Shown here: positions 6,299 to 25,180 of the stretch, piece by piece
Position numbering within the stretch: position 1 is the stretch's first letter
Layout of the letters: each line of letters opens with the position of its first letter
NCBI GenBank assembly: GCA_963845755.1
Contig: CAWJTV010000025.1
Coordinates: 256,001 to 320,000, forward strand
Length of the DNA: 64,000 nucleotides
DNA from: an uncultured Planctomycetota bacterium
GTDB taxonomy: Bacteria > Planctomycetota > Planctomycetia > Isosphaerales > Isosphaeraceae
Reading direction: 5' to 3'
The notes under the pieces: generated by a model
What the model was told of the DNA's origin: nothing
What the model saw: the letters and a program-made list of their open reading frames with translations, nothing else
Databases searched by the model: none
Program-made: the position numbers and the translations under genes

Positions 6299-9200
6299 AT
6301 GTCTCAGCCATCCCGAACCCGGGCGCGCGGCCCAGCAGAGCGTCGTCGTCGTGATCTGAAGATCGAGCCGCCGACCCCCTTGGAGGACCGTCGCCTGCCT
6401 GCGCCGGTCGTCTCCTTGTTTCCCCTGGGGGTGTCGTTCGTACCCGCACCGACACCGACGAACGCGGACCTGGGCACCGTGGTGGTGACGGAGAACACCG
6501 CGGCGACGATCGCCGACTCGCAAGCACCGATCACGTCGGTGTCTGAGCTGACATCGAACGCTTCGTTCGGTAACGACATCGTCAACATCCAGCCGGGCCC
6601 GGGGGGCGTCTTCGGGGAAGACGTCTACGCGATCTCCCGAGGCGCCGGCGGCAACCCCGACGCGATCAACCGTCCGGGCGTGATCTATCGCGTTGATCCG
6701 GCCACCGGCAAGGCGAGCGTCTTCTTCGATCTCAACACGGTCCTCAGCCAGATCGACCCGACCAATAGCACGCCCGCGACCCCGGCGGCCAACTCGCTGG
6801 GCAACTCGACGGGGCTGGTGAACTGGTACAGTATGAGCTTCGACCCCGAGGGGAACTTCGACGGCACTCCGTCCTTGTTCGTCAGCAGCGTCAACCGCTC
6901 CGATCCGAACAAGAACATCATCTTCCAGATCGCCCCCAACGGCACGCTGATCGGCGTCTTCGTCCAGATGACCGACGGGCTCTCGGCCCAGAAGTTCAAC
7001 CTGAACCCCACGGCGATCCTGATCCCGCCGGTGCAGCAGCAGCAGTTCCTCAGCGGGATGATCGCCGGTAGCGGGATCAGCACGACGTCGGGCACGTTCG
7101 CGGCGCTCTACTTCAACCAGAACAGCTACTCTCCGGGCCAGGTCATCAGCAATTCCGTCCTGCCGACGGGCGTAAGCCAGACCAACCTGGGCCTGCCGGT
7201 GATCACCCAGGTGCTCACGAATTTCAATTCGGTCACGACGACCTCGGTCGCCACCGGACCGATCGTCGGCCTGACCTCGTCGAACAGCTACTATGGCAAC
7301 CAGACATTCTCGATCTTCACGGACTTCGGGACGTCGGCGGCCCCCGGGATCCCGGCCGCGCCGGGCTATAGCGGCGTCCAGGGGAGCGACGGCGAGCTGT
7401 TGATCGGTAATGCCACGACCCTCGCACTCAGCGCGACCGGGGACACCGACATCCAGCCCGCCGCGTCAACGTTGTTCCGGCGATTCTACGGCATCGCTTT
7501 CGACCAGTACGGCTACTTCTCCCAGGGTATGGCGATCGGGGCCAGCAGCACCGTGGGCAGCGGTACGAGCACAACGTTGACCGTCACCGATCCCCCGAGT
7601 TATGCCGGCAGCGTGTTCGTCAGCGACCTGTCGTCCGGGCTGTATATCAGCATCACGCCCCAGGCTCCGTTGCCCACCACGTCCATCCTGATCCCCGTCG
7701 AGGGGACGGGAGTCGTGAGCGTCACCTCGGATTCGAATGGAAACGTGATCCCGATCATCAGCTATGTCCCGAACCCGGACGGGTCGGTTGGCTTCGGCGG
7801 CCGTGTCGTCCGGATCACGCCGGCGGGCCTGGTGAACGAGTTCGCCTATGGGTTCAACGTGTCGCCGGACACGGGGTCCGACAGTTTCATCGATTCCACC
7901 CTGAGCATCGGGTTCTCGGGGGATGGGACGATCTTCTACGCCGCCGACAATACCGGGATCTGGCAGTTCAAGACGACCGCCGACCTGGCCGACTCGACCA
8001 GCGGAAGTCTGATCGGCCTGAACGACCTCCGCGCCCTGGGCGTCCCGTACGACGGCGAGAACAGCGCCGTGGCGGTGGTGGACACCGGCGTGGACGCCAG
8101 TGCGCCCTCGTTCCGCGGCCGGGTTGCCACCGGCACAAATATCATCACGGGCGGTGTCGGCAACCAGGATCTGGCCCCCGCCAGCACCGCGAGTACGACG
8201 ACGGGGGGGACCGGCGGAGGCGGCGGCGGCGGGGGAGTCGGCGGTCGCGGCGGTGGCGGTGGGGGTGGAGGTGGCGGTGGGGGCGGCGGCGGTGGGGGTG
8301 CCGGCGGCGGCGGTGGTGCGGGCCTAGGCATCACTGCAGGCGCCAGTGCCACTCAACGCGGCGGTGTTTCCGCGGGCGATCCCACGTTCCTCAACCAAAC
8401 CCCGGCCGGACACGGCACGCCGGTCGCGGGTGTCATCGCCCAGTTCGTCCCTCAAGCCACGATCGACCCCATCGATATCTTCAGCCCATTCTCCCCGTCC
8501 GCGAGCTTGATATCCAGCTCGACCACGGCGGGCGGCACCGGCGGCACCGGCGGCGGTGGTGGCGGCACCGGGACCGGGGGCGCGCTGAGCGAAACGACCA
8601 ACGACGATGGGGCCACATCCCAGACGCTCTACAACGGGCTTCAGTACCTGGTCGCGCACCCGTACGTCAACGATCCGCTCCGAGCGGGGCAAGTGGATCG
8701 CATCATCGCGGCCGTATACGCCTTCGGAACTTCCAATACGTTCGCCACCGAGGCGGGTGCATACAAGCAGTTCCCGCAAGTCGTCATCGCCCTGAAGAAT
8801 GAGTACCATAAGCTGCGCAAGGAGGGAATCGCCAACATCGCGGCGACCGGTCAGTTCGGCGCACCCCTGGGGGCATCGACCTCGTCTTCGACCACCACCA
8901 CCGGGACGGGCAGCTCGGGCGTCAATCTCGAGGCGAACAACAACGCCCAGAACGGGAGTGTGGGCGACAACGGCGGCATCTCGCTTCCCGCCATCATCAA
9001 CGAGGTGGTCTCCGTCACCGGCGTGTACTCCTTCCCCTTCACGGACACGCCTGGGACCTCGCCCATCGATACGCCGACCGGGGTCATTACCACGGGCGGC
9101 GCCTCCGAACCGGGCCCCGTCCTCCTCTTCGGATCGGACGCGACGATCGGCGGGACCGCAACGATCGGGTCCAGCAGCAGTGGGACAACCGGCGGCACCA

Positions 9201-11083
9201 CAGCGACCGGATTCAACGAGAACGCCCAGTTGCTCGCGGGGGCGGATTTCGCGATCTGGGCCGACCGCGTCCCCGGTGCCGCCAATCGCAATCCGACGAC
9301 GGACTTCGCCGCGCCGGCATTCAACGTGCCGACGTTCGCACGGAACGTCCAGATCGTGACCTCGAGCACCACGACCACGGGTACGGGCACCAACGGCACC
9401 AGCCCCTCCGGGATCATCAACCCCCTGACATTCACCCAGGTTGGCACTTCGATGTCCTCGGCGATCGTCACGGGTTCCTACGCCCTGGTGTCCTCCGCCC
9501 TCGACTACTGGATCGCGCTGGCCCAGTCCAATGGCTACACGGCCGACGCCTATCTGAACACGCCGGTCGGGACGGACTCCTTGAACTTCGGCAAGCACGC
9601 CTTCAAGAACCTCACCGCCTGGAACACCCCCGACGGTATCAACGGCATCCTCGCCTGGACCTCCGTGCCGGCCACCGACGTCAACGACGGGAATACCGCC
9701 TCCACGCCGTCCCAACTGCCCGATAGCACCGCATTCCCGTCCTACGCACGGATCTCCGTGGGCAACGCCATCGCCTCGGTCGAAGGTTATGTCGCCATCA
9801 ACTACCTGGAGAAGCATCATGACTTCCCGCTCATCGACACCAACCACGATGGCCTGATCACGGCCCAGGAGCTCACGAACTTCGTCAATGACGCCAACGC
9901 CATGGGCCTGCCCGAGGCGGGTGCCATGGCGAACCTCCTCGGCGGAACGGCGACCTACGGACCGGTCGAGGCGGGCGTCAACAACGAGATCTTCAACGAG
10001 AATCCCGACCAGCCGGCCGCCGAGCAGCGCCGGTTCAATTACTTCGATTTCGCGGCCGACGGCCAGCTCAACGGCTCGATCTCGACCCGAGAGCTTAAGA
10101 TGCTGGGCCGCACCCTGTTGCCGTCCCCCGACGCCTACACCATCGTCGATCGGCAACGCGCCTCGGCCAACGGCTTCTTGCTGGCGCCGGATACACCGCG
10201 CAACCTCGTCGCCTTGCAGCATCTCGCGCCCAAATTCCTGTGGGTTCCCAAGTCGGCGGTCGCCAAGTACCGCAACATCTCGCCCGCCCAGTTCAAGGTC
10301 GGTGCCGGCGAGTACCCGGGTCTCTACCTCCCGTTATTGACCCTGTTCGATTCTCCGCCGAACGCTTCCTCGGGTGGGACCCCCTCGACCCAGGATCAAG
10401 TCATCTCGATGACCAGGTCCGCAGTCGTCTCGGGTAAGAAGGTCACAGTCGACTACTTCGCGACCGTGACGCCAACCAGTACTCCCACCAGCACGACCAC
10501 GACGACGACACCGACACCGACCAGCTCGACACCGACACCGACACCGACCAGCCCCACGTCCACAAGCGCGGCTTCGACGGGCGTCACCGGCACGACAACG
10601 CAGGCAACGCCGACCTCCACATCGACGCAGGCGACCCTGGCCGAGACGATACTCGGCATCAACGATAGCAGTTCGTCGAGTACGTCGGGCTCCTCGGGCG
10701 GGACCAACTCGATCACCTCCTCGACCTCCCTGAACCCGACAGGGCTCACGATCTCCCAGTTATCCGTGGGACCCCTCTCGACCGCGGGGACCCTCAGCCC
10801 ATCTCCGACACCGACGCCCACACCGACACCGACGCCCACACCGACGCCCACACCGACGCCCACACCGACGCCCACACCGACGCCGAGCAGCACGGTCGCT
10901 CAGGTGCCGCTCGCGTACTCCTCGACGATTGCCACGGCCACGGCTACGGCCGCGGCGCAGGCCCAGGTCCCCTCCCACGCCGAGAAGCGCGTGTTGGTAA
11001 GGAAGGCGGCGGTGAAACCGAAAAAGAAGGCTACGAACGTGTTCGACCAGATGTGGAATAGCATCAAGAAGTCGTTCTCGTGA
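6299..11083 (+). CDS. Large extracellular S8 (subtilase) family protein with poly-Gly inserts, EF-hand-like loops and Pro/Thr-rich tail
   Basis: AGGAG RBS upstream. N-terminal RRRR...LEDRRLPA planctomycete extracellular motif. Triad motifs AVVDTGVD, GHGTPVAGVIA, GTSMSSAIVTG. EF-hand-like DTNHDGLITAQEL. (PT)n linker. Confidence 0.85.
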   Translation: MSQPSRTRARGPAERRRRDLKIEPPTPLEDRRLPAPVVSLFPLGVSFVPAPTPTNADLGTVVVTENTAATIADSQAPITSVSELTSNASFGNDIVNIQPGPGGVFGEDVYAISRGAGGNPDAINRPGVIYRVDPATGKASVFFDLNTVLSQIDPTNSTPATPAANSLGNSTGLVNWYSMSFDPEGNFDGTPSLFVSSVNRSDPNKNIIFQIAPNGTLIGVFVQMTDGLSAQKFNLNPTAILIPPVQQQQFLSGMIAGSGISTTSGTFAALYFNQNSYSPGQVISNSVLPTGVSQTNLGLPVITQVLTNFNSVTTTSVATGPIVGLTSSNSYYGNQTFSIFTDFGTSAAPGIPAAPGYSGVQGSDGELLIGNATTLALSATGDTDIQPAASTLFRRFYGIAFDQYGYFSQGMAIGASSTVGSGTSTTLTVTDPPSYAGSVFVSDLSSGLYISITPQAPLPTTSILIPVEGTGVVSVTSDSNGNVIPIISYVPNPDGSVGFGGRVVRITPAGLVNEFAYGFNVSPDTGSDSFIDSTLSIGFSGDGTIFYAADNTGIWQFKTTADLADSTSGSLIGLNDLRALGVPYDGENSAVAVVDTGVDASAPSFRGRVATGTNIITGGVGNQDLAPASTASTTTGGTGGGGGGGGVGGRGGGGGGGGGGGGGGGGGAGGGGGAGLGITAGASATQRGGVSAGDPTFLNQTPAGHGTPVAGVIAQFVPQATIDPIDIFSPFSPSASLISSSTTAGGTGGTGGGGGGTGTGGALSETTNDDGATSQTLYNGLQYLVAHPYVNDPLRAGQVDRIIAAVYAFGTSNTFATEAGAYKQFPQVVIALKNEYHKLRKEGIANIAATGQFGAPLGASTSSSTTTTGTGSSGVNLEANNNAQNGSVGDNGGISLPAIINEVVSVTGVYSFPFTDTPGTSPIDTPTGVITTGGASEPGPVLLFGSDATIGGTATIGSSSSGTTGGTTATGFNENAQLLAGADFAIWADRVPGAANRNPTTDFAAPAFNVPTFARNVQIVTSSTTTTGTGTNGTSPSGIINPLTFTQVGTSMSSAIVTGSYALVSSALDYWIALAQSNGYTADAYLNTPVGTDSLNFGKHAFKNLTAWNTPDGINGILAWTSVPATDVNDGNTASTPSQLPDSTAFPSYARISVGNAIASVEGYVAINYLEKHHDFPLIDTNHDGLITAQELTNFVNDANAMGLPEAGAMANLLGGTATYGPVEAGVNNEIFNENPDQPAAEQRRFNYFDFAADGQLNGSISTRELKMLGRTLLPSPDAYTIVDRQRASANGFLLAPDTPRNLVALQHLAPKFLWVPKSAVAKYRNISPAQFKVGAGEYPGLYLPLLTLFDSPPNASSGGTPSTQDQVISMTRSAVVSGKKVTVDYFATVTPTSTPTSTTTTTTPTPTSSTPTPTPTSPTSTSAASTGVTGTTTQATPTSTSTQATLAETILGINDSSSSSTSGSSGGTNSITSSTSLNPTGLTISQLSVGPLSTAGTLSPSPTPTPTPTPTPTPTPTPTPTPTPTPTPSSTVAQVPLAYSSTIATATATAAAQAQVPSHAEKRVLVRKAAVKPKKKATNVFDQMWNSIKKSFS
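10806..10884 (+). repeat. Coding tandem repeat (CCGACGCCCACA-type) encoding ~13 Pro-Thr units
   Basis: Read directly: ccgacaccgacgcccaca x2, then ccgacgcccaca x3. Confidence 0.9.
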
Positions 11084-11344
11084 ACGAGGACAAGTTCTTC
11101 ACGACGCAGACCGTAACTCAAGCCGGCCGGCCCTGAACTCTCGGGGTCGGCCGGTTCGCTTTGCGCGATGGCGGAACCCGACCGTTCCGGCATCGTTCGG
11201 AGGCACCGGTCAGGGAGGTCGTGCGGGCAGCAGGGCGGGAATCACGGATGCTCTGGGCGTCCGCGTGGGCCGGCCAGAAGTCGGTGCCGTACCTCCGGGC
11301 CGTCGGGATCCTCTGGAAGGTGAGTTGTCCGGGCCGTATGTTGT

Positions 11345-11539
11345 TAGAGCGCCTCGCAGTTGGATTGCGCACGCCCCAGTGACGATGCGAATCCACCCCC
11401 CTGTATCCCCCTTTCGTAAGGGGGGAAAAGACAGGGGGCCGTTCCGCCCCAATATCTCCCCCCTTAACGAAGGGGGGATACAGGGGGGTTCTTCGGGAGC
11501 GGACTTCGAGCGTGCGCCATCCAACGGTTAAGCGCTCTA
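11345..11539. mobile_element. MITE-like element 1 (~195 bp): 30-bp imperfect terminal inverted repeats enclosing a CCCCC-TTcgtAA-GGGGG double palindrome
   Basis: Left end TAGAGCGCCTCGCAGTTGGATTGCGCACGC; right end reverse-complemented TAGAGCGCTTAACCGTTGGATGGCGCACGC. Inner arms ccccctgtatccccctttcgtaagggggg and cccccttaacgaaggggggatacagggggg. Homologous inverted copy at 28804..28993. Confidence 0.75.
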
Positions 11540-11595
11540 GCAATCCATGCGCTTTGTCTCCCGACCTTCAACGGATCCGACCAGGAGAGAGCACC

Positions 11596-12489
11596 ATGAC
11601 CCCGATCGCGCGAAGAGCCTTCCTCAGCACGGCGGGCGCGACGCTCGCCGCCGCGGCGGTCTTGCCGGCGGCGGAAACAACGCCCGCGCCCGATGACGAG
11701 CCGGCCAAGAACCACTGGAAGAAAGCCTTCATGCTGGGCGGCGTGACCAAGGGTTCTCCCTTGCCCGCATTCCAGCTCTTGAAAGCCGCAGGATTCGAGG
11801 GGGTCGAGCTCATCAGCCCCAATCAGCTCGATCGCCGCGAGGTCTTGAGCGCACGCGACGAAACGGGCCTGGTCATTCATGGCGTCAGCGGGGCGCGTCA
11901 CTGGCAGGACCCGCTCTCCGACCCCGATCCTCGGGTCGTCGAGCGCGGGATGGCCGCCATCCGCCAGGAATTCGAAGATTGCAAGGCCTACGGCGGGACC
12001 ACCGTGCTGGTCGTCCCGGCCGTCGTGAACAAGAAAGTTGGCTACCGCGACGCCTACAAGCGGTCCCAGGAAAACATCCGCAAGCTGATCCCCGACGCCG
12101 AGAAACATGGGGTCAAGATCGCCATCGAGGAGGTCTGGAACAAGTTCCTGCTCAGCCCGATCGAGTTCGCCCGTTACATCGATGAATTCGAGAGTCCGTG
12201 GGTCGGAGCGTACTTCGATGTGGGCAACGTGGTCGAGTTCGCCTATCCGGAAGAGTGGATTCGCGAGCTGGGCAAGCGGATCCTCAAGATCCACATCAAG
12301 GAGTACGCCAAACGCAATCGGTTCAACTACCGACTGGGTGAAGGGAGGGAGATCGACTGGGCGGCCGTCCGCAATGCCCTGATCGCCGTTGGCTACGATG
12401 GCTGGATCACCGCCGAAGTCCCTTTCGGCGATCTTGAGGCCATGAAAGACGTGGTCGTTCGCATGAACCGGTTGCTGGAATTGGGCTAG
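11596..12489 (+). CDS. Tat-exported sugar-phosphate isomerase/epimerase (xylose-isomerase-like TIM barrel)
   Basis: AGGAG RBS. Twin-arginine signal ARRAFL. Motifs AGFEGVEL, IAIEEVWNKFLLSP, YFDVGN, IHIKEY, GYDGWITAE. Confidence 0.88.
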   Translation: MTPIARRAFLSTAGATLAAAAVLPAAETTPAPDDEPAKNHWKKAFMLGGVTKGSPLPAFQLLKAAGFEGVELISPNQLDRREVLSARDETGLVIHGVSGARHWQDPLSDPDPRVVERGMAAIRQEFEDCKAYGGTTVLVVPAVVNKKVGYRDAYKRSQENIRKLIPDAEKHGVKIAIEEVWNKFLLSPIEFARYIDEFESPWVGAYFDVGNVVEFAYPEEWIRELGKRILKIHIKEYAKRNRFNYRLGEGREIDWAAVRNALIAVGYDGWITAEVPFGDLEAMKDVVVRMNRLLELG

Positions 12490-12597
12490 TGCAATCAATC
12501 CGGGTAGATCGTCGAAGAATCTTGCATTTGGCGCGGCCCTTTTCCACCATGATGAAATAGAGAAGAGCCAAAGAACCCTGGGAATCGGGCTGACCCA

Positions 12598-13605
12598 ATG
12601 CTCGAATGCGCGAATGACGCGATCTTGCTGGAACGCTTTGCCCGAGGCCGAGAAGAGGCCGCGTTCGTGGCGTTGGTCCAGCGCCATGGGCCCATGGTCC
12701 AGCGAATCTGCCGTCGCATCCTCCGCAATGAACAGGATGTCGAGGATGTCTTTCAGGCAACCTTCCTGATCCTGGCCCGGAAGGCGGCGGGGATCGCCTG
12801 GCAGGACTCGGCGAGTGGATGGCTGAGTGCGGTCGCCCGTCGATTGGCGATGAATGTCCGATCAGGAGCCGCTCGGCAACGCAGGCAGGAAACCTCGATC
12901 ACGGCCTTGGCGGGCGGTCCGGCGAACGGCCACGGGCACTTGCCGGAGAAGTTCCATCCCGTCGTCGATGCGTCCGCCGAGTTGGAGCGGCGCGATCTGC
13001 GGCGGATCCTGGACGACGAATTGCGGCACCTGCCCGAAAAATACCGGGTACCGGTGATCCTGTGCTACCTGGAAGGCCGGACACACGAGGAGGCCGCACG
13101 GCAACTCGGCTGGCCGGCCGGCTCGATGTCGCGGAGACTGGATCGGGCGCGGCAGATGCTGCGTCGGCGACTGGCTCATCGCGGTCTGGCCATCGCGGCC
13201 ATTGGCCTGGTCTCGGCCGCGTTCTTCGCGGTCAGCATCGGACGAGTACCCGACCCATCGTCCGGCGCCGCGGTGGTCCAGAAGGCGATGGCGCCGTTCC
13301 GGGCGACTTCAGAAGGAGGCCAGGGCTTCGGTTCCCTGCTCTCCGTACTCGCCCAATCCGCAAACGCGCCGCGCGAACCTGGGCCTATCCTGCGGCTCGC
13401 GCGTCAGGCCGCCCAGACGGCCCAGGTTATCAAGGAACACGATCCGGGGGCCCTGAGCGCCGCGTGGCAGCAGTATGCGACCGAGATGGAACGCTCGGCC
13501 ACGGACCTGCACCAGGCTGCTCAGGATGGAGACCGACTCTTACTCGTCGCCGCCGCACGCCGGCTCGACGCGAGTTGCCTCCATTGCCATGAGGTTTTCC
13601 GATAA
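12598..13605 (+). CDS. ECF sigma factor fused to a TM helix and a C-terminal class II (c'/c556-like) cytochrome c domain
   Basis: Sigma region 2 (AFVALVQRHGPMV...EDVFQATFLILARKA) and region 4 (LPEKYRVPVILCYLEGRTHEEAARQLGW). Hydrophobic LAIAAIGLVSAAFFAVSIG. Helical domain ending ...AAARRLDASCLHCHEVFR*. Confidence 0.9.
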   Translation: MLECANDAILLERFARGREEAAFVALVQRHGPMVQRICRRILRNEQDVEDVFQATFLILARKAAGIAWQDSASGWLSAVARRLAMNVRSGAARQRRQETSITALAGGPANGHGHLPEKFHPVVDASAELERRDLRRILDDELRHLPEKYRVPVILCYLEGRTHEEAARQLGWPAGSMSRRLDRARQMLRRRLAHRGLAIAAIGLVSAAFFAVSIGRVPDPSSGAAVVQKAMAPFRATSEGGQGFGSLLSVLAQSANAPREPGPILRLARQAAQTAQVIKEHDPGALSAAWQQYATEMERSATDLHQAAQDGDRLLLVAAARRLDASCLHCHEVFR

Positions 13606-13663
13606 TTCATGAAACCATGGCTGAAGGAATCGCGCCGCCCACCCAACCGACAACATGGTTCGC

Positions 13664-14094
13664 TCGAGCGCTAAACCGTTCAGTCGAGCATCCCCCAGGG
13701 CGACGCGAAGACCCTGCTAAACACCAGGCTGAAAATAATTTGGGATTTTTTATCTGCCGCTGGGGCTGAGAGTTGGGGCGGCTCCCGGCCGAAATCCCCG
13801 CTAGGTGCATTCACGGTTTTCTAAAGTTGCGGCATCCTGAGAGTATGGCCCACGTGCGATCACTGCCGAGACGGACGCCCGGACTGCGCCTCCCGGTCCA
13901 GGTTGTCGTCGTAACCGAATATCTGCCAAGGAGATCGGGGAGGGCGATCCGGGAAAAAGATGTCCCATTGTGCCACGTGATGACACCCGCATCGGTCGGT
14001 GAGTCCCGGAGGGGACCTGCGGTCGGCCGGGTGGCCAGGTCGGGAGACCGTGCCCCAGCGCGGGGCGCGGGCCATTCAAGTGTGAGGCGCTCTC
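13664..14094. mobile_element. MITE-like element 2 (~430 bp, degenerate) with the same end family, containing a GGTCGGGAGACC-type REP-like hairpin
   Basis: Left tcgagcgctaaaccgtt...; right reverse-complemented gagagcgcctcacacttgaatggcccgcgc. Internal gacctgcggtc...gtggccaggtcgggagaccgtgcccc at ~14015-14057. Confidence 0.5.
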
Positions 14095-14321
14095 GTCGGC
14101 ATCGAACTTCGGGTTCGAACGATTGCGTGGTGCGAATCGTAAGATGGACGGGGGCGCTTTGCGCCTGGACGTCGGGGAGGTTGGGGACCACGAAGAGTCT
14201 GGTCCGCGGACTAGCGTACGACTAGAATGGTTGAGATGACCGACTCGACGCGACGTGGATCGAATCTCCCCGCCCCCGGTCCCTCCCTCGAAACCCTCAC
14301 CTCCGGGCAGGTGCGAACGAT

Positions 14322-16512
14322 ATGGCGACGGCCACCAAGAAGTTTCCTCCGGCATCGACTCCTCCACCGCAGCGTGCGGCGCGTACGCCGAAGCCGTCCC
14401 TGGTGGACCGATTCGTCAATGGGGTTGATGCGGTCTATCGGTTTCTCGCGTCGCTGAAACTGGCGGTGATCTCGCTGGGGACCCTGGCCGCGACGCTGGC
14501 CTACGCGACATTCTTCGACTCGTGGTACGGGACCGCGGCCGTGCGGGAGTATATCTACCGCGCACCCGGCTTTGCGATCTTGCTGGCGTTCCTGGGGATG
14601 AACATCCTGTGCGCGGCCCTGATCCGGTACCCGTGGAAGAAGCGGCAGACCGGTTTTGTGGTGACGCACGCCGGGCTCCTCATCATGCTGGCCGGCTCGT
14701 ACTACAGCGTCCGGACCGCCGACGAAGGACAGGTGGGCATGCTCGAAGGAGACCGCAAGGGCGAGCTGGTCCGCACCGACTATCCCGTGATCCGGGTCTG
14801 GGAGGTCAACCCGCACACCCAGCGTTACACGCGCGAGATCGACCTGCCGTTCCTGCCCGGCTCGTTCGCATGGGGGCCGGGCAAACCCCAGTCCCAAGGC
14901 GTCTTCGACCGGCTGGGCTCGACGCTCACCCTCGGTCTGGCCGGAACAACCCCGGTCACCGAGGAGGTCTTGAGCAAGCCGGGCGATCCGTTCCGGTTCG
15001 TGGTCAGGGAGCACCTGCCGTCATCGGCCCCCTCGAAGGAGCACGTCGCGGACCCTGACGGCGCACCCATGGCCCGCATCCGCGTCCTGTTCAAGCCACC
15101 CGGGGGCGCCCAGGAGATGGACGCATTCCCCTCCGACGGCGCCCAATGGTTCGCGACCGAGAAGAAGTTCTACCGGGTCACACGCGCGCCCATGGCCGGT
15201 GCTCCCGCCTTGATCACGTTCTCGGCCGTGGATCGGCCCGAGCTGGTCGCGGACTTCCTCAAACCTCCGGCGACGACCGGCAAGGAAGGGGTCGCACGCT
15301 TCCGCTACCCCGATCAATCCGGCCGCACCCGCGTCTTCGACTGGGCGCTGGATGGGCAGCAAGGCAAGTCGGTCAGCCTGCCGGAGAGCGATCTCAATGT
15401 CACGATGACCGAGCTCCTCGCGCTCCAACCCCAGGAATTCCGGCTGAATCGCTACCTGGGCGAGGATCCGCTCCCGATCGCCAAGTTCGAGGTTCGGCAC
15501 GGCGGCGGCGAGTTCGACCACCCACATGGCGATGGCGAACTTGCCGATGGTTCCTCCCGTCCTTCCCTCGCACGATCAGTCCGGTGCGGCCCCGAAGCCG
15601 CCGCTCGCGACGATCCATTACATGGTCAACCCGGTCATCGATCCCCAAACCAATGGCCGCTTCGGGCAGATCGACGTCCTGGCGGGTCCCGACGATTCGC
15701 TCTCATACCGCGTCTTCGGCCGGGGCAAGGACGGCCAGGGCGAGCTCCGTGCCGCCGGCGCGGTCACCAAGGGGACGCCGATCGTCGCCTTCGGTGGCAA
15801 TCCCAACATGCCGATGACGATTCGCTTCGAGGTCGACGAGTACCTGCCCGCGGGGATCGCCAGGGACATCTTTGTCCCCGTCGAGCTCCCGAAGGGGAAA
15901 AAGGATGAAGGGATCGGCGCCTGCCGGGTCGAGATGACCGTGGGCAACGAGACCAAGGAGCTCTGGCTCGAACGTTCGCTCAACCTCGAACCGCCGTCGC
16001 CGCAGATCGTCACGTTTCGCGATGCGGCCTACGCGATCGCCTACGATTGCGACCGCAAGCCACTTGGTTTCGAGCTGAAGCTCGACGATTTCGACGTCGG
16101 CTTCGAGCCGGGCACCGAGCAGCCGACCAAGTTCGTCAGCCATGTCCGGCTCACCGACAAGGCGGACGAGATCAAGGACGAGTCGCACACGATCTCGATG
16201 AACCATCCACTTTACCACAACGGATACACCTTCTACCAATCGCGATACGTTCCGGACCTGGACGAACACAAACAACCCAATGGGCGCTTCCAGTCGATCT
16301 TCCAGGTGGCCATCAACCCCGGCCGCCCGATCATCTATGCCGGCTGCATGATGGTGGTCCTGGGCGCCTTCCTCCAGTTCTACATGAGGGCGGGGATCTT
16401 CACGGATGGCGGCAAGCGGGAACGCGAACGCGCCGCCGCCAAGGCGAGTGCCAATGCGACCAAGGCCAAGGGGAAGTTGCTCCAGCAAGCCGAACAGACC
16501 GAGCGCCTTTAG
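14322..16512 (+). CDS. ccsB: Cytochrome c biogenesis system II protein, ResB/CcsB-like (frameshift at ~15515)
   Basis: N-terminal TMs (SLKLAVISL..., ...VVTHAGLLIMLAG with the conserved His) and a large periplasmic domain. C-terminal ISMNHPLYHNGYTFYQS...NPGRPIIYAG+TM. Joins ORFs 14322..15908 and 15526..16512. Confidence 0.85.
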
Positions 16513-16567
16513 GTCAGGCTTTCCAGCCTGATGACCAAGACCTGTCAGGCCGGAAAGCCTGACCTAC
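16510..16567. repeat. GTAG-type REP doublet (TAGGTCAGGCTTTCCAGCCTGA...TCAGGCCGGAAAGCCTGACCTAC)
   Basis: Long inverted repeat overlapping the ccsB TAG stop. Second copy of the same family at 61104..61164. Confidence 0.85.
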
Positions 16568-16593
16568 CCGAGCGAGCCGCCGGAGACTTGAAC

Positions 16594-19333
16594 ATGAGAC
16601 GTATTGCCAAACGACTCGCCGGTTTGATCCTGGCCGGCACGATGGTTGGTGGGCTTCCCGCGCGGGGCGACGAGGCTGTCAAACCGATGGGGGTCGGGAA
16701 CAGCTACGACCAGATCGGCAAGGTCGCGGTCATGCACCAGGGGCGGGTCAAGCCGCTCGACACCGTGGCCCGCGAGGAAGTCAAGCAGGTCTACAGCCGT
16801 GAGACGATCTCGCTTCGCGACCCCCGCGAGGAGGTCGAGAAGCTGCTCGATCCCGAGTCCTTCCACAAGCCGGGGGGCACGCAGTGGACGGTCGAGAAAT
16901 GGGGGCCGGTTGGCTCCTTCCTCGGCTGGACCGTGCGGCCCGAGTTCTGGGACGATCAGCCGTTCATCCTCGTCGATTACCTGCCGTTGCGGCGCCTGAT
17001 CGTGGCCGGACCACTCGAGGCACGGCTCAAGGCGATCGCCGAGAAGCCGACGACCTCCGCCGAGGATAAGGCGGTGTTGCTGAAGCTCGCGGCCGATCGC
17101 GAGCCGACGGCCACCACCCTGATCGAGTTCGCCCGCGGTTCCAAGCTGCCGGTCGAGGATCGCCGCTTCATCGCCGAGCTCGCGGTCAAGCTGACCGAAG
17201 AGCACAAGTGGCTCACTCCGCGCGAGCTGGAAGAAGCGACGATCACCGTCAAGGGCGAGCCCCAGCCGTTTCGGAGCTGGGTCATGGCCATGAGCGAGCA
17301 GCAGCGGAAGTTCCACAACGATCCGACCTCCGTCGAGCGTCCCACCGAGATCGAGCGCCGCGCGGTCGAAGCGGCCCAACGGTTGATGACCTATCAGGCT
17401 TACAGCGAGGACCAGTTCCGGACCAACGGACTGATCCTGATCGTGCCCCGTCCGTCCGATGCGAAGTACCTGGCCTACACGGCCAGGACGGTCACCGAGG
17501 CGCGCAAGCCCGATGCGCACGTTCGACGATCTGCCGTTGATGAAGCTCGACGCCCTCAAGGCGATCGCCACCTACTGGAACTTCATCCCGCGCGAGGAGC
17601 ACAAGACGCCGACGGAAGACAAGGAGGCCGACGAGAAATTCACGGCCTGGTTGCGGGAAAGCTCGACCTGGGTCCCACTCAAGGTACTCTTGAAGTCGAA
17701 GCCTGAAGAGCTGGTCGAGGCGGGCTACTCCGAGGGGCTGGTCCGATCGTTCCTGACCGCGTATCGCGATCTGGAGCAGGCCGAGACCCGCGCTCCCGGC
17801 CAGGTCTCCGAGGCGGTGGCGACCAGCTTCTTGACGGCCTCCCGATCCCTGGGCGAGGCGGCCTCGACGGCCTATCCCACCATCCCGACGATCGAGCGCG
17901 AGACTTATTTCAACGCCACCAACCCGTTCTGGACGGCGCCGTTCGCCTATGGTGCCGCGGTGATGCTGCTGGTGGTGGGCCTGGCGTTCGCGTCCACGAC
18001 ATCCAAGGGATCGCTGGGCGGTCGCGTGGGCCTCGGCATTTATGGCCTGGGAATGCTCGGCCTGTTGAGCGGGATCGCCCTGGAGATCTGGGGCTTTTAT
18101 TTCCGGGTGCGGATCACGGGCTGGGCACCGGTGACGAACATGTATGAGACGGTCATCTGGGTCGCCCTGGTGGCCGCGGTCCTGTCGGTGGTCTTCGAGG
18201 CGATCTTCCGCCGAGTGTACTTCGCGCTGGCCGGCTCGGCCGTCGCGCTGCTGGGCACGCTCACGGCGGCGAACGTCCCGCTCCTGGACCCGAGCATCAA
18301 GAGCCTCCAGCCGGTGCTACGGAGCAACCTCTGGCTGACGATCCACGTGCTGACCGAGGTCTCGAGCTACGCGGCGTTCGGGCTGGCCTGGATGCTGGGC
18401 CTGATCGCCACCGCCTTCTACTTGACGGCCACCTACCGACGGTCGCCGCGATTCGGCGAGCTGGCGCTGTTGCTGATCCCCGGCCTGCCGCTGGCGATCG
18501 TGGGCGGGGTTGGCGTCGCGGCCTCCTACGGGCTCTTCGGCCCGCAATGGGTGGTCCCCGACCTCCTGTTCTATGTCTTCGCGGTCATGGGTCTGCTGGG
18601 AGGCATGATCTCGCTGGCCGCCGTGTTGGCGCTGCTCGGTGAAGTCGTCGCCCGGCTCATGTTCCGCGACGAGGTCAACCGGACGGACGACACGGAGCCA
18701 CCCGCCTGGGAGCCCGAGGACTTCGCGGGCGAGCCTTCGGCGCTCGGATCTTCCGACCATGAAGGCGGCGTGGCCACGATGGTCAAGCCGACGCTCGCCG
18801 CACTCCGGGCGCGGGCCACCACGACCAAGGTCCAGCTCGACGCGCGCGGGCTGGCCATGCAGCGCACGGCGGCGACGGTCAAGCCGCTGTCCAACTTCAT
18901 TTACCGGACGATGCAGGTCGGGGTGCTCTTGATCGCGGCCGGGACGATCCTGGGCGGCGTCTGGGCAGACTATTCCTGGGGCCGGTTCTGGGGGTGGGAT
19001 GCCAAGGAAGTCTGGGCGCTGATCACCCTGCTCGTCTACCTGATCCCGCTCCACGGCCGCTTCGCCGGCTGGGTCAATACCTTCGGTCTCGTATTCGCTT
19101 CGGTCTTCTGCTACCTCTCCGTGGTCATGGCCTGGTACGGCGTCAACTTCGTCCTGGGCGTGGGCTTGCACAGCTATGGCTTCGTCGAAGGCGGCTCGCA
19201 GGGTGCCATGAGCGTGATCCTCGCGGGCATCCTGGCATTCCCCGTCGGCGCCGCCTGGCGACGCCGGTTGGGATATCGCCCGATGTTCACGGAGCCCTCA
19301 ACCGGCTCCGGCGAGCCTGAGACCCTGGGCTGA
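16594..19333 (+). CDS. ccsA: Cytochrome c biogenesis heme exporter/lyase CcsA/ResC with large N-terminal periplasmic domain (frameshift at ~17515)
   Basis: Signal peptide, HQGRVKPLDT, GWAPVTNMYE, LQPVLRSNLWLTIHV, WWD domain WADYSWGRFWGWDAKEVWAL, GLHSYG. Joins ORFs 16531..17706 and 17459..19333. Confidence 0.93.
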
Positions 19334-19853
19334 ATCGACCGAACTTTCTCGATGAGCGATCTCCGTCCGACCCCTGGTTTGTGCACGCATCTTGAGGCAA
19401 TCCGAGCGCGAAATCGCCCGGAGTCGTCCACCTGATAACCGGTGGGGCGGCCGAACCTTCAATTCATCGGCGTCAAGATTATGCATATGAGATGTCAATA
19501 TTATTATTTATTTTATTAAAAATATAAAAATCAGTAGACAGATCTCGGCTGGAGGCGGGACGCCGAGATCCGGGCGGACGTTCCCCCTTGGGGTTTGTCA
19601 CGGACGACAGACGTGGGGGGAATATCCACCGCGAGCGAGAAGTCGCTCGACTTTGATCCACCTGGACACCATTAACCTACTCCGTTACGCCCGGACCACG
19701 GACTCGAACTTCAACCTTCCCTCCCTTGAGCACCTCGACGAGCTTCTGATAGCGAGATGAGCGTGCAACCGGCCCGTCTCCTGGACTCGTCTACCAGGCG
19801 TCTATGAACATCTGAAAGGTTAGTTGAACCGACCGTCATTGGTGAGGTCGTAC

Positions 19854-20015
19854 GTTAACTTTCGGGCAGGTCAGGAAGAAGGCCGTCATGGCAAAGGGTT
19901 TGGAACGGTCGTAGCCTTTGGCGAATTCGTCCTGGAGTCGCCGGGAGAGCTCCTCGATGACGCGCTTGCCGTGTTCGGATCGTTCCTGCCCGGCCTGTTC
20001 TTCCTCAACGATGAT
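19854..20015 (-). pseudogene. Remnant of a DUF1016/YhcG-family N-terminal domain
   Basis: Translates IIVEEEQAGQERSEHGKRVIEELSRRLQDEFAKGYDRS...AFFLTCPK, resembling the family motif IVEEEQxGxxRAxYGxxLIxxLSxxLxxEFGKGF. No start or C-terminal nuclease domain present. Confidence 0.65.
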
Positions 20016-20138
20016 TTTGACCCGGGGTCCAACTTGACCTGGGGTCCAACTTGGGTTTTCCTGTCCAGAATCGGCGTCGGAGCGCAGTCTAATCCCTAGA
20101 TCGATTCGAACGGCGCAGTTTGCCTTTCGGGGGATGGC

Positions 20139-20765
20139 ATGGATCAGGGTCGGGTTGAGGAAACCGGGACCGATCGCGTCCAATGGGGCCAGTTCCTCTC
20201 GGCCCATCGCGACCGCCTTCGGCGGATGGTGGCTCTGCGGCTGGATCAGCGTTTGCGCGGTCGGATCGACCCCTCGGACGTGATCCAGGAGGCGTTCGTG
20301 GAGGCTATCGAGCGACAGTCCGAGTATGAGCGCCAGCCGGATGCCATGCCGCCGTTCTTATGGCTGAGATTCCTGACGCTCCAGCGGTTGCAGCTCTTGC
20401 ATCGCCGACAGCTCGGGACTCAGGCCCGGGACGCCAGCCGCGAGGTGTCGATCCACGGCGGAGCCTTCCCGGCGGCGAGTTCGGCCGCACTGGCGGCGCG
20501 GCTGCTGGGCCACGACACCCGCCCCAGCGAGGCGGCCATCCGCGTCGAGCGCACTCAGCGGCTCCAGAAGGCCCTCGATGAGATGGACGCGATCGACCGG
20601 GAGGTGCTAGTGCTGCGGCACTTCGAGCAGCTCGGCAACGGCGAGTGCGCGCGGGTGCTAGAATTGAGCGAGTCGGCGGCGAACAAGCGCTACATCAGGG
20701 CCTTGAGACGGCTCAAGGCGATGCTCGCGGCCCTGCCGGGCGGAGAGAAGGAGGTCTGGCCATGA
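20139..20765 (+). CDS. ECF sigma factor, planctomycete kinase-associated type
   Basis: HRDRLRRMVALRLDQRLRGRIDPSDVIQE; DREVLVLRHFEQLGNGECARVL...RYIRAL. Stop overlaps the kinase start (ATGA). Confidence 0.92.
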   Translation: MDQGRVEETGTDRVQWGQFLSAHRDRLRRMVALRLDQRLRGRIDPSDVIQEAFVEAIERQSEYERQPDAMPPFLWLRFLTLQRLQLLHRRQLGTQARDASREVSIHGGAFPAASSAALAARLLGHDTRPSEAAIRVERTQRLQKALDEMDAIDREVLVLRHFEQLGNGECARVLELSESAANKRYIRALRRLKAMLAALPGGEKEVWP

Positions 20766-23700
20766 GCGACGGATCGGCGCCGGCGCCGGAAGACGATCTC
20801 CTGGGGCCAATTCTCGAGTCATTCGTGCATCGGTTCCGTCGCGGCGAGCGGCCGTCGCTGACCGAGCTCATCACTCGACACCCCGAGCTGGCCGCGCAGA
20901 TCCGCGAGCTGGTCCCGGCGCTGGTTGATCTGGAGCAACTCGCGGGCTCGTCCCACGGCCCGGTTGGGTCCGCAAGGCCTCGGCCAGCCTCGGCCATCAC
21001 CCGGGATGAGGGCCCTACGCCCGAGCAGTTGGGCGACTATCGCATCCTCCGCCGGATCGGCGGCGGCGGGATGGGCGTGGTTTATGAGGCCGAGCACGAG
21101 GCGCTCGAGCGCAGTGTGGCGCTGAAGGTCATGCTCCCGCGTTTGCGGGACGATCCGAGATACTTGCGGCGGTTCCACACCGAGGCCAGCCTGACGGCGG
21201 GGCTGCACCACACGAACATCGTCGGTGTCTTCGACTACGGCGAGCAGGACGGTGTCTGCTATTACGCGATGCAGTTGATCCAGGGGCAACCCCTGGACTG
21301 CGTCCTGGCCGACATCCGTCTCCTGCGCGAGAGCCAGAGGCAAGGCGATCATCAGAGCGGCTCCGATCGGCTTCCGAACATCCCGGCGGCGGACGCATCG
21401 ATCGCCGGCTCGGCCGCCGCTCGAGGGCTCTTGAGCGGCCGCTTCGACGTGGCCATGACGAGCGACGAGGCCGTGGCCGTCACGCTCCCGATCGGAGTCG
21501 GCGACCCGGACGGTCCGGGATCCTCGGGAACGGGTGCGGAGGCGACTGCGGACGTGCCGGCGGATCGGCCGTCGTCGCTCGGTTCGTCGACGCTGGGCCC
21601 CTCTGGTGAGCTGCGCTACTACCGCGAGGTCGCGCGGATTGGTGCCCAGGTCGCCGACGCCCTGGAATACGCCCACCGACGCCGTATCATCCATCGCGAC
21701 ATCAAGCCGTCGAACCTGCTGCTCGACGCCCAGGGCAACGTGTGGGTGACCGACTTCGGCCTGTCGCGGCTGACGGATAACGCCGACCTGACCCAGTCGC
21801 GCGAGTTGGTCGGGACGCTCCGCTACATGGCGCCGAGCGGCTCCGTGGGAAGTCGGACCGCCGCAGCGACGTGTATTCCCTGGGGGCGACCCTGTACGAG
21901 ATGGTGGCCTTGCGTCCACCTTTCGAAGAAGCCGACGAGATCCGGCTGATGGAGCGCATCCGGAACGACGCGCCGATGACGCCGCGCCAGTTCGACCAGA
22001 AGCTCCCGCGCGACCTGGAGACCATCCTCTTCAAGACACTGGCCAAGGACCCGAAGGACCGATTCAGCTCGGCAGCGGCCCTGGCCGACGAGCTGCGGCG
22101 GTTCATCGACGGGCGGCCAATCCGGTCGCGGCCGGTGTCGGTTCCCGAGCAGTTCTGGCGCTGGTGCAAGCGCGACCCCTGGCTGGCTGGTGCGAGCATT
22201 TCCGCCGCGGCGGTGACGATCATTCTGGCCGTCGTATCGATGGCCGCGGCGATCATCTATCGCGACCAGGCCGAGGCGCTACGGGTGGAGCGGAACCGCT
22301 CGGACGTGGCCCTGCTGGATGCCAGCCGACGGGCCGTCGATGCCTACACGGCGCAGGCGCGAGGCGGCCGGCTCAGCCACCGCCCCGGGCAGCGCTTCGA
22401 GACCCTCGAGGCGGTGAAGCAGGCCGCCAGGCTGCTCGACGGCCTTCCGCTCGGGCCGGATACTGCCTCCCGGCGCGACGAGCTTCGCGAGCTGGCGATT
22501 GCCGCGATGGCCTTGCCCGACCTCCAGCCGACCGGCCGGGTCATCGCGCGGCCATCGGGCGTGATCGCGACGGCGTTCGATTCCGGGATGTCCCGCTACG
22601 CGCTGCGGTTCCGCGATGGGCGGATCTTGGTCCGACGCGTGGCCGATGACCAGGAGATCGCCTCGTTCCAGGCCCGGGGCGATCGCGACGTCTGGATCTT
22701 CGGTTTCAACCCCGACGGCCGCTATCTGGCGACCAACCATCCCCCCGACGGGGCGCTGACGGTCTGGGATGTCAACCGGCGCGTCGCCGTTGTGGACGAC
22801 CCGGGCCCCATCAGCCTGGCGGCGCGATTCAGCCCGGACGGTCGTTCGCTCGCGGTGGCCCGACGTGGAGAGCTTGTTGTTTACGACCTGGCGACCGGCC
22901 GGCCCAGCCGGCGCTGGCCCGGAAATGTCGACTGCCTGGCCTTCCGTCCGGACGGGACCCAGATCGCGGTCATCGACGACGTGGCAAAGCCCCCGACCTG
23001 GCGGATCCTGGACGCCAACTCGGGCCGGGAGGTCCGGGCGTTCCCCTTGCGGGTCTTCGCCGACGATGTCGTCTGGAACCCCGCAGGCACCATGCTGGCC
23101 ACGACGACGCGCATTCAGGAGCACAAGATCGACCTGTGGGATGTCGTGACCGGAAACCGCAGGGCCACTCTGGGAGGTCATACGAATCTCGGCTTGCGCG
23201 CGTCCTTTCACCCGGCTGGTACGCTGCTGGCCAGCAATGGCTTTGAAGGTCGTCTCCGGCTGTGGGATCCGATCCTGGGCCGGCCCCTGCTCGACGTGAC
23301 GAGCGGATCCGGGCCCGAGTTCAGTGCGGACGGAAGGATCGTCGTCTCGAACGACGACAAGCTGATTATCCATGAAGTCGACCCCGCCCGGGAGTATCGG
23401 ACATTCGCCTATCCCCTCGCGAAGCGAACCGGTTATGCCGACCCGTCCGTCCGATCTGACGGCCGGCTGCTCGCGGTCGGGACCGATGCCGGCGTGTTAC
23501 TCTGGGACCTGGCCCGCGGCACCGAACTCGCCTGGATGCCGATCCAGGTCGCCTGGCACGTGATGTTCGAGGAGTCGGGCGACCTGATCACGAGCGGCCC
23601 GCTGGGTGTGAATCGCTGGCCGATCCAGCTCGACGCCGGCCGCGGCGAGGTCCGCATCGGCCCGCCGCGTCAGCTCCCGCTGCCGGGGTTGAATTGCGGC

Positions 23701-25180
23701 ATAGGCGAGGACCGGTCGGGTCGGATCGTGGCCAAGTCCGACCATGATTATGCTTACGTGACCACTCCTGAGGGGACGAAGCGTTTGAGTTCTCTGAACG
23801 ACTGCCGTTCTGTCGCCGTCAGCCCGGACGGGCAATGGCTGGCGACCGGGACTCACATCGCGAGTCACGGGGCCCAGGTTTGGCGCATCGCTGACCTCAC
23901 CAAAGTCGCCGACCTGCCCATCGATTACGGTACGGTGGTCTACTTCAGCCCCGATGGCAAATCGCTGATGACCACGGCTTCTCCCTGCCGGCTCTGGGAC
24001 GTTGGCACCTGGCGCGAGGTGAGACGAATCGGTGACACTGCCGGCTGCTTCTCCCCCGACGGCCGGCTGGTGGTTGTCCAGGAAGCGAACAAAATGATCC
24101 GCCTGGTGGAAACGGAGACCGGTCGCACGCTGGCGCGGCTCGAGAGCCCCGACCTCTGCCCCATCCAGCCGACCTTCAGCCCGGACGGATCACGGCTGGT
24201 GGCGATCACGAACGACGGCCCGGCCGTGCACGTGTGGGACCTGCGGGCCATCCGGAAGCAACTGGCCGGGATGGGCCTCGATTGGGACGCGCCCGCCTAT
24301 TCCGGCGACGACCCGTCCGACCCATCGGCACGGCCGTTAACCTCGGTGCAAGTTCGCTATGAGGGAGACGGGATCGCCGAGGGAGACGCCCTGGCCCGCG
24401 AGGGTCGATGGAACGAGGCAGCCGCCGCCTATGCCCGGGCCTTCGACGAGGGGGTCCTGGACCAGGCGGAGGCGCTGGTCCGAACAGGCGTTCCTTCGCC
24501 TGGCGGTGGGCGACGCCGCGGGATATGGTCGGAGCTGCCGGCGTATCCTCGATCGGTTCAGGATCCTGAAGAGATTTGAACCGGCCGGGCACGAGGATCC
24601 GGCTTACGTGATCAACTGGCATTGCTACACGGCATACACGCTAGCCGTGGCCCCAGGTAGCCCGGCCGACGCGGCGCAGGTCTTGCGAATCGCCAAGGGG
24701 TGGGTCGAAGTCTCGCACTCGGCTTGGTCCGAGCAGGTGTTCGGGCTGGCCCTCTACCGTGCCGGACGGTTCGCCGAGGCTGAGACGTGGCTTCGGAGCT
24801 TCCTCGACCGTCATCCCTTACGGGATTACCACGTCTTCGACTGGCTGGTCCTGGCCATGGCCGATCAGCGGCTGGGGCGACCGGACGAAGCCCGACGCTG
24901 GCTGGAGCAAGCCGAGACCTGGGCCGCATCTCGACGGCGCGGCCGGCCCGGAGGTTCCGATCGGGCAACCCCCGAAAACTGGCACTGGACCGACGGAGTG
25001 TTGTTACACCTGCTGCTCCGCGAAGCCCGCGCCCTGGTCGGTACGGAGCTGCCAGTGCTGCCCGGGGACGTCTTCGCGCCCGCGCCTCGAGCGCCTGTTC
25101 CGAAAGCCCGAAGGGACGACAGAAACCCTGGGGATCCGAGAGATTTTGTCGCCCTTCCGGGGCTCGCAGGACGGTCGTGA
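20762..25180 (+). CDS. Ser/Thr protein kinase with TM helix, WD40 beta-propellers and C-terminal TPR-like region (frameshifts at ~21835 and ~24470)
   Basis: IGGGGMGVVY, VALK, HRDIKPSNLL, DFGL, GTLRYMAP/E, PRDLETI. Many FSPDG/LWD repeats. Joins ORFs 20645..21949, 21871..24579 and 24359..25180. The 3' end runs into the repeat at 25087. Confidence 0.9.

Follow-up and report, generated by a model that had tools for sequence, protein, structure and literature searches.

A sigma factor-cytochrome c fusion ahead of the System II genes

The window analysed here is a 64,000-nt stretch of an uncultured planctomycete of the Isosphaeraceae (assembly GCA_963845755.1, contig CAWJTV010000025.1, positions 256,001 to 320,000). 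It carries a gene for an extracytoplasmic function (ECF) sigma factor joined through one membrane helix to a class II cytochrome c domain, followed by ccsB- and ccsA-like genes (Table 1). The 335-residue fusion protein (P0001) is encoded by a single unbroken open reading frame (ORF). Its sigma part matches Sigma70_r2 (PF04542; residues 26-87, 42.5 bits) and Sigma70_r4_2 (PF08281; residues 136-188, 51.1 bits), both above cut-off, as well as TIGR02937 (81 bits), while the haem-attachment motif CLHCH occupies residues 327-331. The initial annotation had described an intact ORF with sigma regions 2 and 4, a single hydrophobic helix and a terminal CxxCH within a class II cytochrome domain, and the ORF, profile matches and hydropathy bear this description out. 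The fusion of these three parts is thus confirmed as real. Nor is a separate anti-sigma factor encoded next to it, again as had been supposed.

The ccsB product matches PF05140 with 70 bits and the ccsA product PF01578 with 89 bits, with a WWD-type WGRFWGWDAKEVW visible in the latter's sequence; a ResB/CcsB-like gene together with a WWD-bearing CcsA-like gene makes this a System II (CcsBA) maturation locus. The two genes had been annotated as next on the same strand, and their identities stand, but the arrangement is less tidy: the gap between sigma gene and ccsB, 716 nt, is the longest among 47 orthologous loci (78-716 nt), and each gene is split by one base, at positions set by comparison with a related locus (L034). 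These splits are probably assembly or sequencing errors, because both genes are intact in relatives (725 and 869 residues) and multi-frame matches were obtained for 5 of 17 genes tested in this assembly. CcsBA acts outside the membrane, where exported CxxCH proteins receive their haem before they fold (PMC10663686). CcmE was not found in the window's own genome (88% complete), which contains a second, weaker Cytochrom_C_asm gene elsewhere and encodes M50 proteases.

Table 1. Features of the fusion gene and its System II neighbours in the window (nucleotide positions within the 64,000-nt stretch).
Feature	Position	Strand	Basis and remarks
Conserved bipartite promoter-like motif: A/T-rich, TGCATTTG (12523-12530), N15, CCATGAT (12547-12553)	12518..12555	+	Candidate autoregulated ECF promoter
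ECF sigma-transmembrane-class II cytochrome c fusion gene	12598..13605	+	ORF, profile matches, full-length model
Cytoplasmic ECF sigma domain, regions 2 and 4, with ECF57-type cysteine pair C38/C156	12598..13182	+	Profile matches, alignment
Single predicted transmembrane helix, residues 197-215	13186..13242	+	Hydropathy; model helix 176-215
Class II cytochrome c four-helix domain; Met231 codon 13288-13290, W290, CxxCH 13576-13590	13255..13602	+	Profile, model, structure comparison, alignment
SigmaA-like ccsB promoter, CTGGTC-N18-TAGAAT	14199..14228	+	Conserved in linked and unlinked loci, independent of the ECF gene
ccsB (ResB/Ccs1-like), interrupted near 15514 by one inserted base	14322..16512	+	PF05140; intact, 725 residues, in L022
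ccsA (ResC-like, WWD domain), interrupted near 17509 by one inserted base	16531..19333	+	PF01578; TIGR03144 below cut-off; intact, 869 residues, in L022

The sigma and membrane parts are ECF57-like

The most hydrophobic 19-residue window of the fusion protein (mean Kyte-Doolittle value 2.29) coincides with the predicted membrane helix, which is flanked by six Lys/Arg residues before and two after. By the positive-inside rule, hydropathy and charge together place the sigma part inside and the cytochrome domain probably outside, in the periplasm, as the initial annotation had it. In the full-length model the membrane helix is continuous with the last helix of sigma region 4 (176-215), with no fixed domain orientation (pTM 0.41). 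A cleavable internal signal peptide was considered; the alignments show no conserved AxA following the helix.

ECF57 sigma factors are planctomycetal, membrane-anchored proteins with a cysteine pair, one cysteine in sigma2 and one in sigma4 (PMC7826278, supplement). In the features compared (sigma core, cysteine pair, membrane extension and planctomycete orthologs) the protein appears to be an ECF57-like sigma, which like that group combines sigma2 and sigma4 with the cysteine pair, has a membrane helix in its C-terminal extension and lacks an anti-sigma factor; release from the membrane has been proposed for the group (PMC7826278, PMC8999054). At the same time, ECF57 proteins are described as having WD40-like or homeodomain-like extensions, about two helices and promoters that are not conserved (PMC7826278, PMC8999054), whereas here, by hydropathy, one helix follows sigma4 directly (against the ECF57 average of about two), the extension is a cytochrome c domain, and both a promoter-like motif and the ccs neighbourhood are sharply conserved or conserved, respectively. 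The Ala-rich linker of most ECF57-like paralogs is also missing. Among 51 sigma-fused database homologs (300-480 residues, excluding the frameshifted P0011 and P0012, and found by a profile that includes Met231), C38 is present in 46, with four gaps, and C156 in 50. One ortholog (P0126, WP_246196462.1) carries the NCBI name Aquisphaera giovannonii, a cultured organism. The nearest ESM Atlas clusters are from Planctomycetota, and the search returned generic sigma clusters only, at values below 0.9. Separately, one paralog in the window's own genome (C1:168790-171303) carries two CxxCH motifs.

The outer domain has the features of a class II cytochrome

Against the Cytochrom_C_2 profile (PF01322, cut-off 26.5 bits) the isolated outer domain scores 26.8 bits and the whole protein 25.0, with 27.5 and 27.6 for the homologs L216 and P0054. 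Modelling of residues 215-335 from 48 sequences gave a four-helix bundle (pLDDT 92, pTM 0.85). All 49 of the Foldseek matches listed were cytochromes of the c' or the 106-residue b562 type (TM-score 0.53-0.72, E-value 2e-3 or weaker), a few of which were identified by their length rather than by their titles. The best structural match was Kusta0087/0088 (6R6M/O; Z 13.2, rmsd 2.1-2.5 over 100-102 residues). Unrelated four-helix bundles score Z 11-12 against the same model, so the fold by itself is no proof of the class; profile searches, in turn, put the Kusta0087/0088 entries first among natural proteins. Taken with the model, these data support a class II (c'/c556-like) fold, the assignment made in the initial annotation. 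Kusta0087/0088 (NaxLS, PDB 6R6M/N/O), c', c556 and b562 share with the domain the four-helix bundle, the C-terminal CxxCH and a residue at the distal position in helix A; these proteins, however, are soluble electron carriers or gas binders, while here the domain makes up the outer part of a transcription factor. Of 14 homologs, 3 are given PF01322 by automatic annotation, and database names are those of plain sigma factors.

Conservation within the domain is uneven. CxxCH and W290 are present in all 51 database homologs, and CxxCH was kept in 47 of 47 in-frame genomic orthologs (of 51, four are frameshifted after the helix), so the motif is not there by chance. Neither CxxCH nor W290 varies across two families at a domain identity of about 30%. 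Met231 is found in 42 of the 51 database homologs, and a Met lies 91-101 residues ahead of CxxCH in 33 of the 47 in-frame orthologs, one of these probably being out of register; the ortholog of genome G505 has the helix-A Met at a shorter distance. About 14 of the 47 lack it, some with helix A shortened by as much as 30 residues, and in three genomes (G004, G122, G123) only 81-88 residues of outer domain are left (compared with about 111), with helix A gone and the CxxCH end kept. What appears to be invariant, as judged from these alignments, is the haem attachment site and not the distal ligand. That CxxCH is kept where the Met is lost makes the sensing of haem attachment a likelier common function than His/Met redox sensing.

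Assuming a gap-free helix A, Met231 aligns by range ends with residue 32 of 6R6N/O, 7 of b562, 12 of c556 and 16 of c', positions that we take to be those of distal ligands; residue 32 of Kusta0087/0088 is mutated in entry titles (C32M/C32G), as is L16 of c'. Met231 is therefore, by range ends and in a haem-free model, in the right register for a c556-type distal ligand, and the part of the initial annotation that placed a Met (in VQKAM) at the distal position stands, while His/Met redox sensing as a shared function, which it had favoured, does not fare well given the orthologs without Met. A somewhat unlikely alternative builds on this residue: the cytochrome would always be haem-loaded, and its His/Met (or five-coordinate) haem would sense periplasmic redox state or nitric oxide (NO)/carbon monoxide, a conformational change releasing the sigma and raising sigma-ccsBA transcription, for example under micro-oxic or nitrosative conditions. 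The position of Met231, its retention in most homologs and in free-standing exported relatives, and the complete fold with its conserved W290 all fit such a sensor. They have to be set against the several lineages that have lost the Met and much of helix A yet keep CxxCH, the promoter-like motif and the linkage, and a Met at the distal position is no proof of ligation: Rhodospirillum molischianum c' carries Met16 without ligation. A homodimer prediction with haem (score 0.02) speaks neither way.

The nearest non-sigma relatives of the domain are exported, free-standing proteins of about 250 residues with a signal peptide. Among 20 loci of such relatives in other families none had a nearby sigma or ccs gene, and a scan of genome contigs with one sequence gave only a distant free-standing cytochrome. 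These relatives belong to a widespread planctomycete family (L136-L155, P0076, P0096, P0130) in which a haem-less helical N-terminal domain precedes a class II cytochrome domain with a helix-A Met; there are tandem copies in G390 and G505, and multi-haem and HEAT-repeat fusions (P0105, P0119, P0125). A second fusion type was seen in the 685-residue database protein P0108, which has a related sigma, an Ala-rich ECF57 linker, a middle domain and a C-terminal two-domain cytochrome c' of the exported type, and could possibly be an intermediate or an independent sigma-cytochrome fusion.

Distribution of the fusion and its linkage to ccs genes

A profile of the domain (threshold 1e-8) matched in 48 of 121 genomes of the family (f1). 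Inspection of 47 loci found sigma and cytochrome together in 44 (43 genomes), with ccsB immediately downstream in 40 of the 43 informative ones, so that the synteny suggested by the initial annotation is conserved; one further contig ends early but has the ccsB promoter 128 nt past the sigma stop. As ccsB is present in 114 of the 121 genomes, mostly at one locus, its upstream region was also inspected in 40 of the roughly 74 remaining genomes, yielding 9 more cases (divergent orthologs and one internally deleted copy), which are linked by construction. In all, 53 of the 121 genomes carry the fusion gene or a remnant. The link to ccsB is tighter than that to the upstream TIM-barrel gene, which is absent or stands apart in about a third of loci; at linked loci there is never an intervening gene between sigma and ccsB, and insertions upstream are common. 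In 20 of the 40 inspected genomes a DUF3754 gene stands upstream of ccsB in place of the fusion gene. In deeper-branching family members (L156-L195) this is the gene that normally precedes ccsB, and tblastn of the window's own genome did not find it.

In a second family (f5) the fusion was found in 1 of 252 genomes, the fragmented G505, where it immediately precedes a family-native lipoprotein-ResB operon (this ResB type occurs in 53 of 61 genomes, and the lipoprotein precedes ResB in 20 of 20 loci). The G505 protein and 12 database proteins form a branch apart from the f1 orthologs in the protein tree. Either the fusion was recruited to ccs operons on two occasions, or a single ancient link was lost many times; both would point to a functional tie, on the evidence of this one genome. 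A search of f5 with the full-length protein at 1e-62 gave no match and is uninformative. The gene preceding the ResB-like gene at all 20 f5 loci (L216:2156-3280, P0171; L217-L236) encodes an uncharacterised, lipoprotein-like protein of about 350 residues, a possible ccs accessory factor.

A promoter-like motif marks the fusion gene and is at chance level at ccsB

Upstream of 48 of 50 sigma orthologs (shuffle mean 0.6) we found an A/T-rich stretch followed by TGCATT(T/C)G-N15-GGCATAAT, ending about 42-47 nt ahead of the sigma start, and the same motif precedes the G505 gene and copies in genus g21 that are not linked to ccsB. With a position weight matrix (PWM) trained on 37 sites, the window excluded, the site ahead of the fusion gene ranks first in its own 14.3-Mb genome (28.8, next 20.5). 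A strict pattern search of five near-complete genomes gave one or two sites each, the sigma gene always among them. A motif common to all ECF57-like paralogs was ruled out by a PWM scan of their upstream regions: at most 1 of 65 sigma paralogs above 80 bits has an upstream site of at least 12 (13.2). Since the motif is nearly unique to the sigma gene, the only evident output besides the sigma itself is the genes downstream. From its position and specificity only, we read the motif as an autoregulated ECF promoter whose regulon would be very small; another factor may bind the motif instead.

The initial annotation had put forward the intergenic region at 13606-14321 as a promoter for this sigma, which was not upheld. 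The sigma-specific motif occurs upstream of ccsB in 2 of 47 linked and 1 of 28 unlinked loci, which is chance level, and what lies there is a sigmaA-like CTGG(T/C)-N-TA(G/C/A)AAT, which was found in 45 of the 47 linked loci (shuffle mean 0.26) and in 20 of the 28 unlinked ones (shuffle mean 0.12). With the motif at the sigma gene and at chance level at ccsB, any control of ccsBA would have to act by read-through atop the basal promoter. Terminator-like hairpins were found in 1 of 47 sigma-ccsB intergenic regions; as the background in the clade is low (ccsA, 3 of 32 downstream regions; TIM gene, 4 of 37; random long ORFs, 20 of 300), this scarcity is uninformative on read-through. A generic sigma70 scan gave no promoter, and Rfam no match in 11000-20200.

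Among the approximately 65 ECF57-like paralogs in the window's own genome (G000), many have an A/T-rich AAAnnTGGAA-like element 130-145 nt ahead of the aligned start, weak in comparison with shuffles. De novo expectation-maximisation on 50 paralogs gave 11.5 against 9.8 for shuffles, a slight excess that was set aside. The paralog upstream sequences suggest that each may have its own promoter variant.

A candidate reporter of cytochrome c maturation

Our tentative reading, to which we give somewhat less than an even chance, is that the protein is a membrane-tethered, one-component ECF57-like sigma that reports on System II cytochrome c maturation capacity and is freed by proteolysis when unhaemed. 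Every new fusion molecule would be a CcsBA substrate. With haem attached, the bundle would fold and hold the sigma at the membrane in a silent state. A shortage of haem, of thiol reduction or of CcsBA would lead to degradation of the apo domain; a site-2 protease would then cut the helix, and the freed sigma would fire its own promoter. The transcript would continue into ccsBA and supplement its basal expression until freshly made copies are once more matured. For most lineages, a redox or gas signal could also enter through the His/Met haem, and the C38/C156 pair may provide a second, cytoplasmic input, as proposed for ECF57. Counted for this reading are the CxxCH kept by all in-frame orthologs even without helix A and the Met, the near-unique motif ahead of the sigma gene, the ccsB neighbour, the occurrence of gene and motif ahead of a different ccs operon in G505, the M50 proteases and the failure to find CcmE. 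The stronger combined claim, that the sigma is a covalent substrate of the very enzyme whose operon it transcribes, that failed haem loading by CcsBA frees it, that a single promoter reads through ccsBA, and that ccs operons were joined twice, is in our estimate slightly less likely still. In Met-keeping lineages the maturation reporter and the always-loaded haem sensor described above are compatible.

A number of observations weigh against such a reporter. The clearest comes from three genomes of genus g21, in which ccsB is unlinked to the fusion gene; there the fusion gene precedes a Gfo/Idh/MocA gene, and ccsB is without the motif. The fusion gene is also dispensable, because it is cleanly deleted in G017 and internally deleted in G064 and G088. 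The ccsB gene has its own sigmaA-like promoter with or without an adjacent sigma, so ccsBA is expressed basally and the sigma is not needed for it, and assignment of the bipartite motif to this sigma draws on position and specificity. In a midpoint-rooted CcsB tree of 78 rows, built in quick mode, the sigma-linked state forms one clade with few losses and the DUF3754 state lies outside, so the synteny in f1 appears to be one inherited event; the second context is a single fragmented genome, G505, while 20 of 20 other f5 ccs loci have no sigma. Retention of Met231 goes beyond the need of a pure attachment reporter. Finally, we infer all steps beyond the anatomy, including the sign of the response (apo- or holo-activated). 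The initial annotation had taken the linkage as a sign of ccsBA control: the linkage is conserved, but the dispensable gene and the unlinked g21 copies stand against the control.

A further alternative, which we consider unlikely, is a haem-bearing, autoregulated sensor without meaningful control of ccsBA. Its adjacency to ccsB would come from clustering of cytochrome and maturation genes or from one inherited rearrangement, and its targets would lie elsewhere, behind degenerate promoters. The independent ccsB promoter, the unlinked g21 copies, the single origin in f1, where the fusion gene replaced the DUF3754 gene, and weaker PWM sites (14-20.5) elsewhere in the window's own genome are all in keeping with it. 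It accounts less well for the absence of a second strong site in six genomes examined, the like placement before a different ccs operon in the second family, and linked loci without an intervening gene despite common upstream insertions.

Very improbable, in our estimate, is a near-neutral outcome of ECF57 domain shuffling, with the cytochrome domain a passive anchor or decaying and control exerted via the cysteine pair or another motif-binding factor. The many similar sigmas in the genome have very varied extensions, and there is degeneration in genus g30 together with several losses, as shuffling might produce; yet CxxCH and W290 are invariant in divergent domains of two families, and gene, motif and neighbourhood stay together.

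Other features of the window

Often conserved upstream of the sigma gene are a gene for a 1594-residue low-complexity protein (6299-11083), subtilase-like by eye and with weak EF-hand matches only in Pfam, and the TIM-barrel sugar isomerase gene (11596-12489). Between genes, a long imperfect inverted repeat (11341-11543) contains 20-nt palindromic CCCCCTT...AAGGGGGG units and is REP/MITE-like. Downstream, an ECF sigma gene is followed by a Ser/Thr kinase-WD40 gene (20139-24579), frameshifted in this assembly, with similar pairs in L024 and L029.

Relation to known systems and significance

Other close parallels are IutY of Pseudomonas putida (ECF243) and SCO4117 (ECF52), sigma/anti-sigma fusions that proteolysis activates and likewise single membrane-spanning polypeptides with an outer domain; in IutY the sigma is fused to a membrane-bound C-terminal part and can be freed by Prc and RseP proteolysis, a route that serves as a model here (PMC8999054). 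These proteins, however, include a FecR-like or ZAS anti-sigma part, are responsive to siderophore or other signals and have no haem domain (PMC8999054), whereas an anti-sigma domain is not evident in the fusion protein. HasR/HasS/HasI, HrrS/ChrS and HssRS also couple envelope haem status to transcription, but with non-covalent haem or a receptor and separate anti-sigma factor, and none is described, in the available part of the source, as itself receiving covalent haem from the cytochrome c synthase that it would control (PMC11442138). The available parts of PMC7826278 and its supplement list no cytochrome extension for ECF57, that of PMC8999054 mentions neither cytochrome nor heme, and neither paper, to the same extent, reports an ECF57 activation mechanism as tested. 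A search of the literature by title and abstract returned no description of a sigma-cytochrome fusion. Wiegand 2020 reportedly classified about 6000 planctomycetal ECFs and could mention such a group.

The adjustment of cytochrome c maturation to demand is little described in bacteria, and this would be the first ECF57 member whose input can be read out, through a haem site that is coloured and can be mutated, and for which both a promoter and a target are predicted. These readable parts, together with the ortholog in cultured A. giovannonii, make the long-standing proposal of membrane release directly testable. If true, the fusion would represent a new sensing logic, with potential as an in vivo reporter of System II activity or of periplasmic redox state or NO, and it would give these planctomycetes a dedicated one-polypeptide quality-control loop for cytochrome c maturation and, with it, a ready-made genetic reporter of haem attachment.

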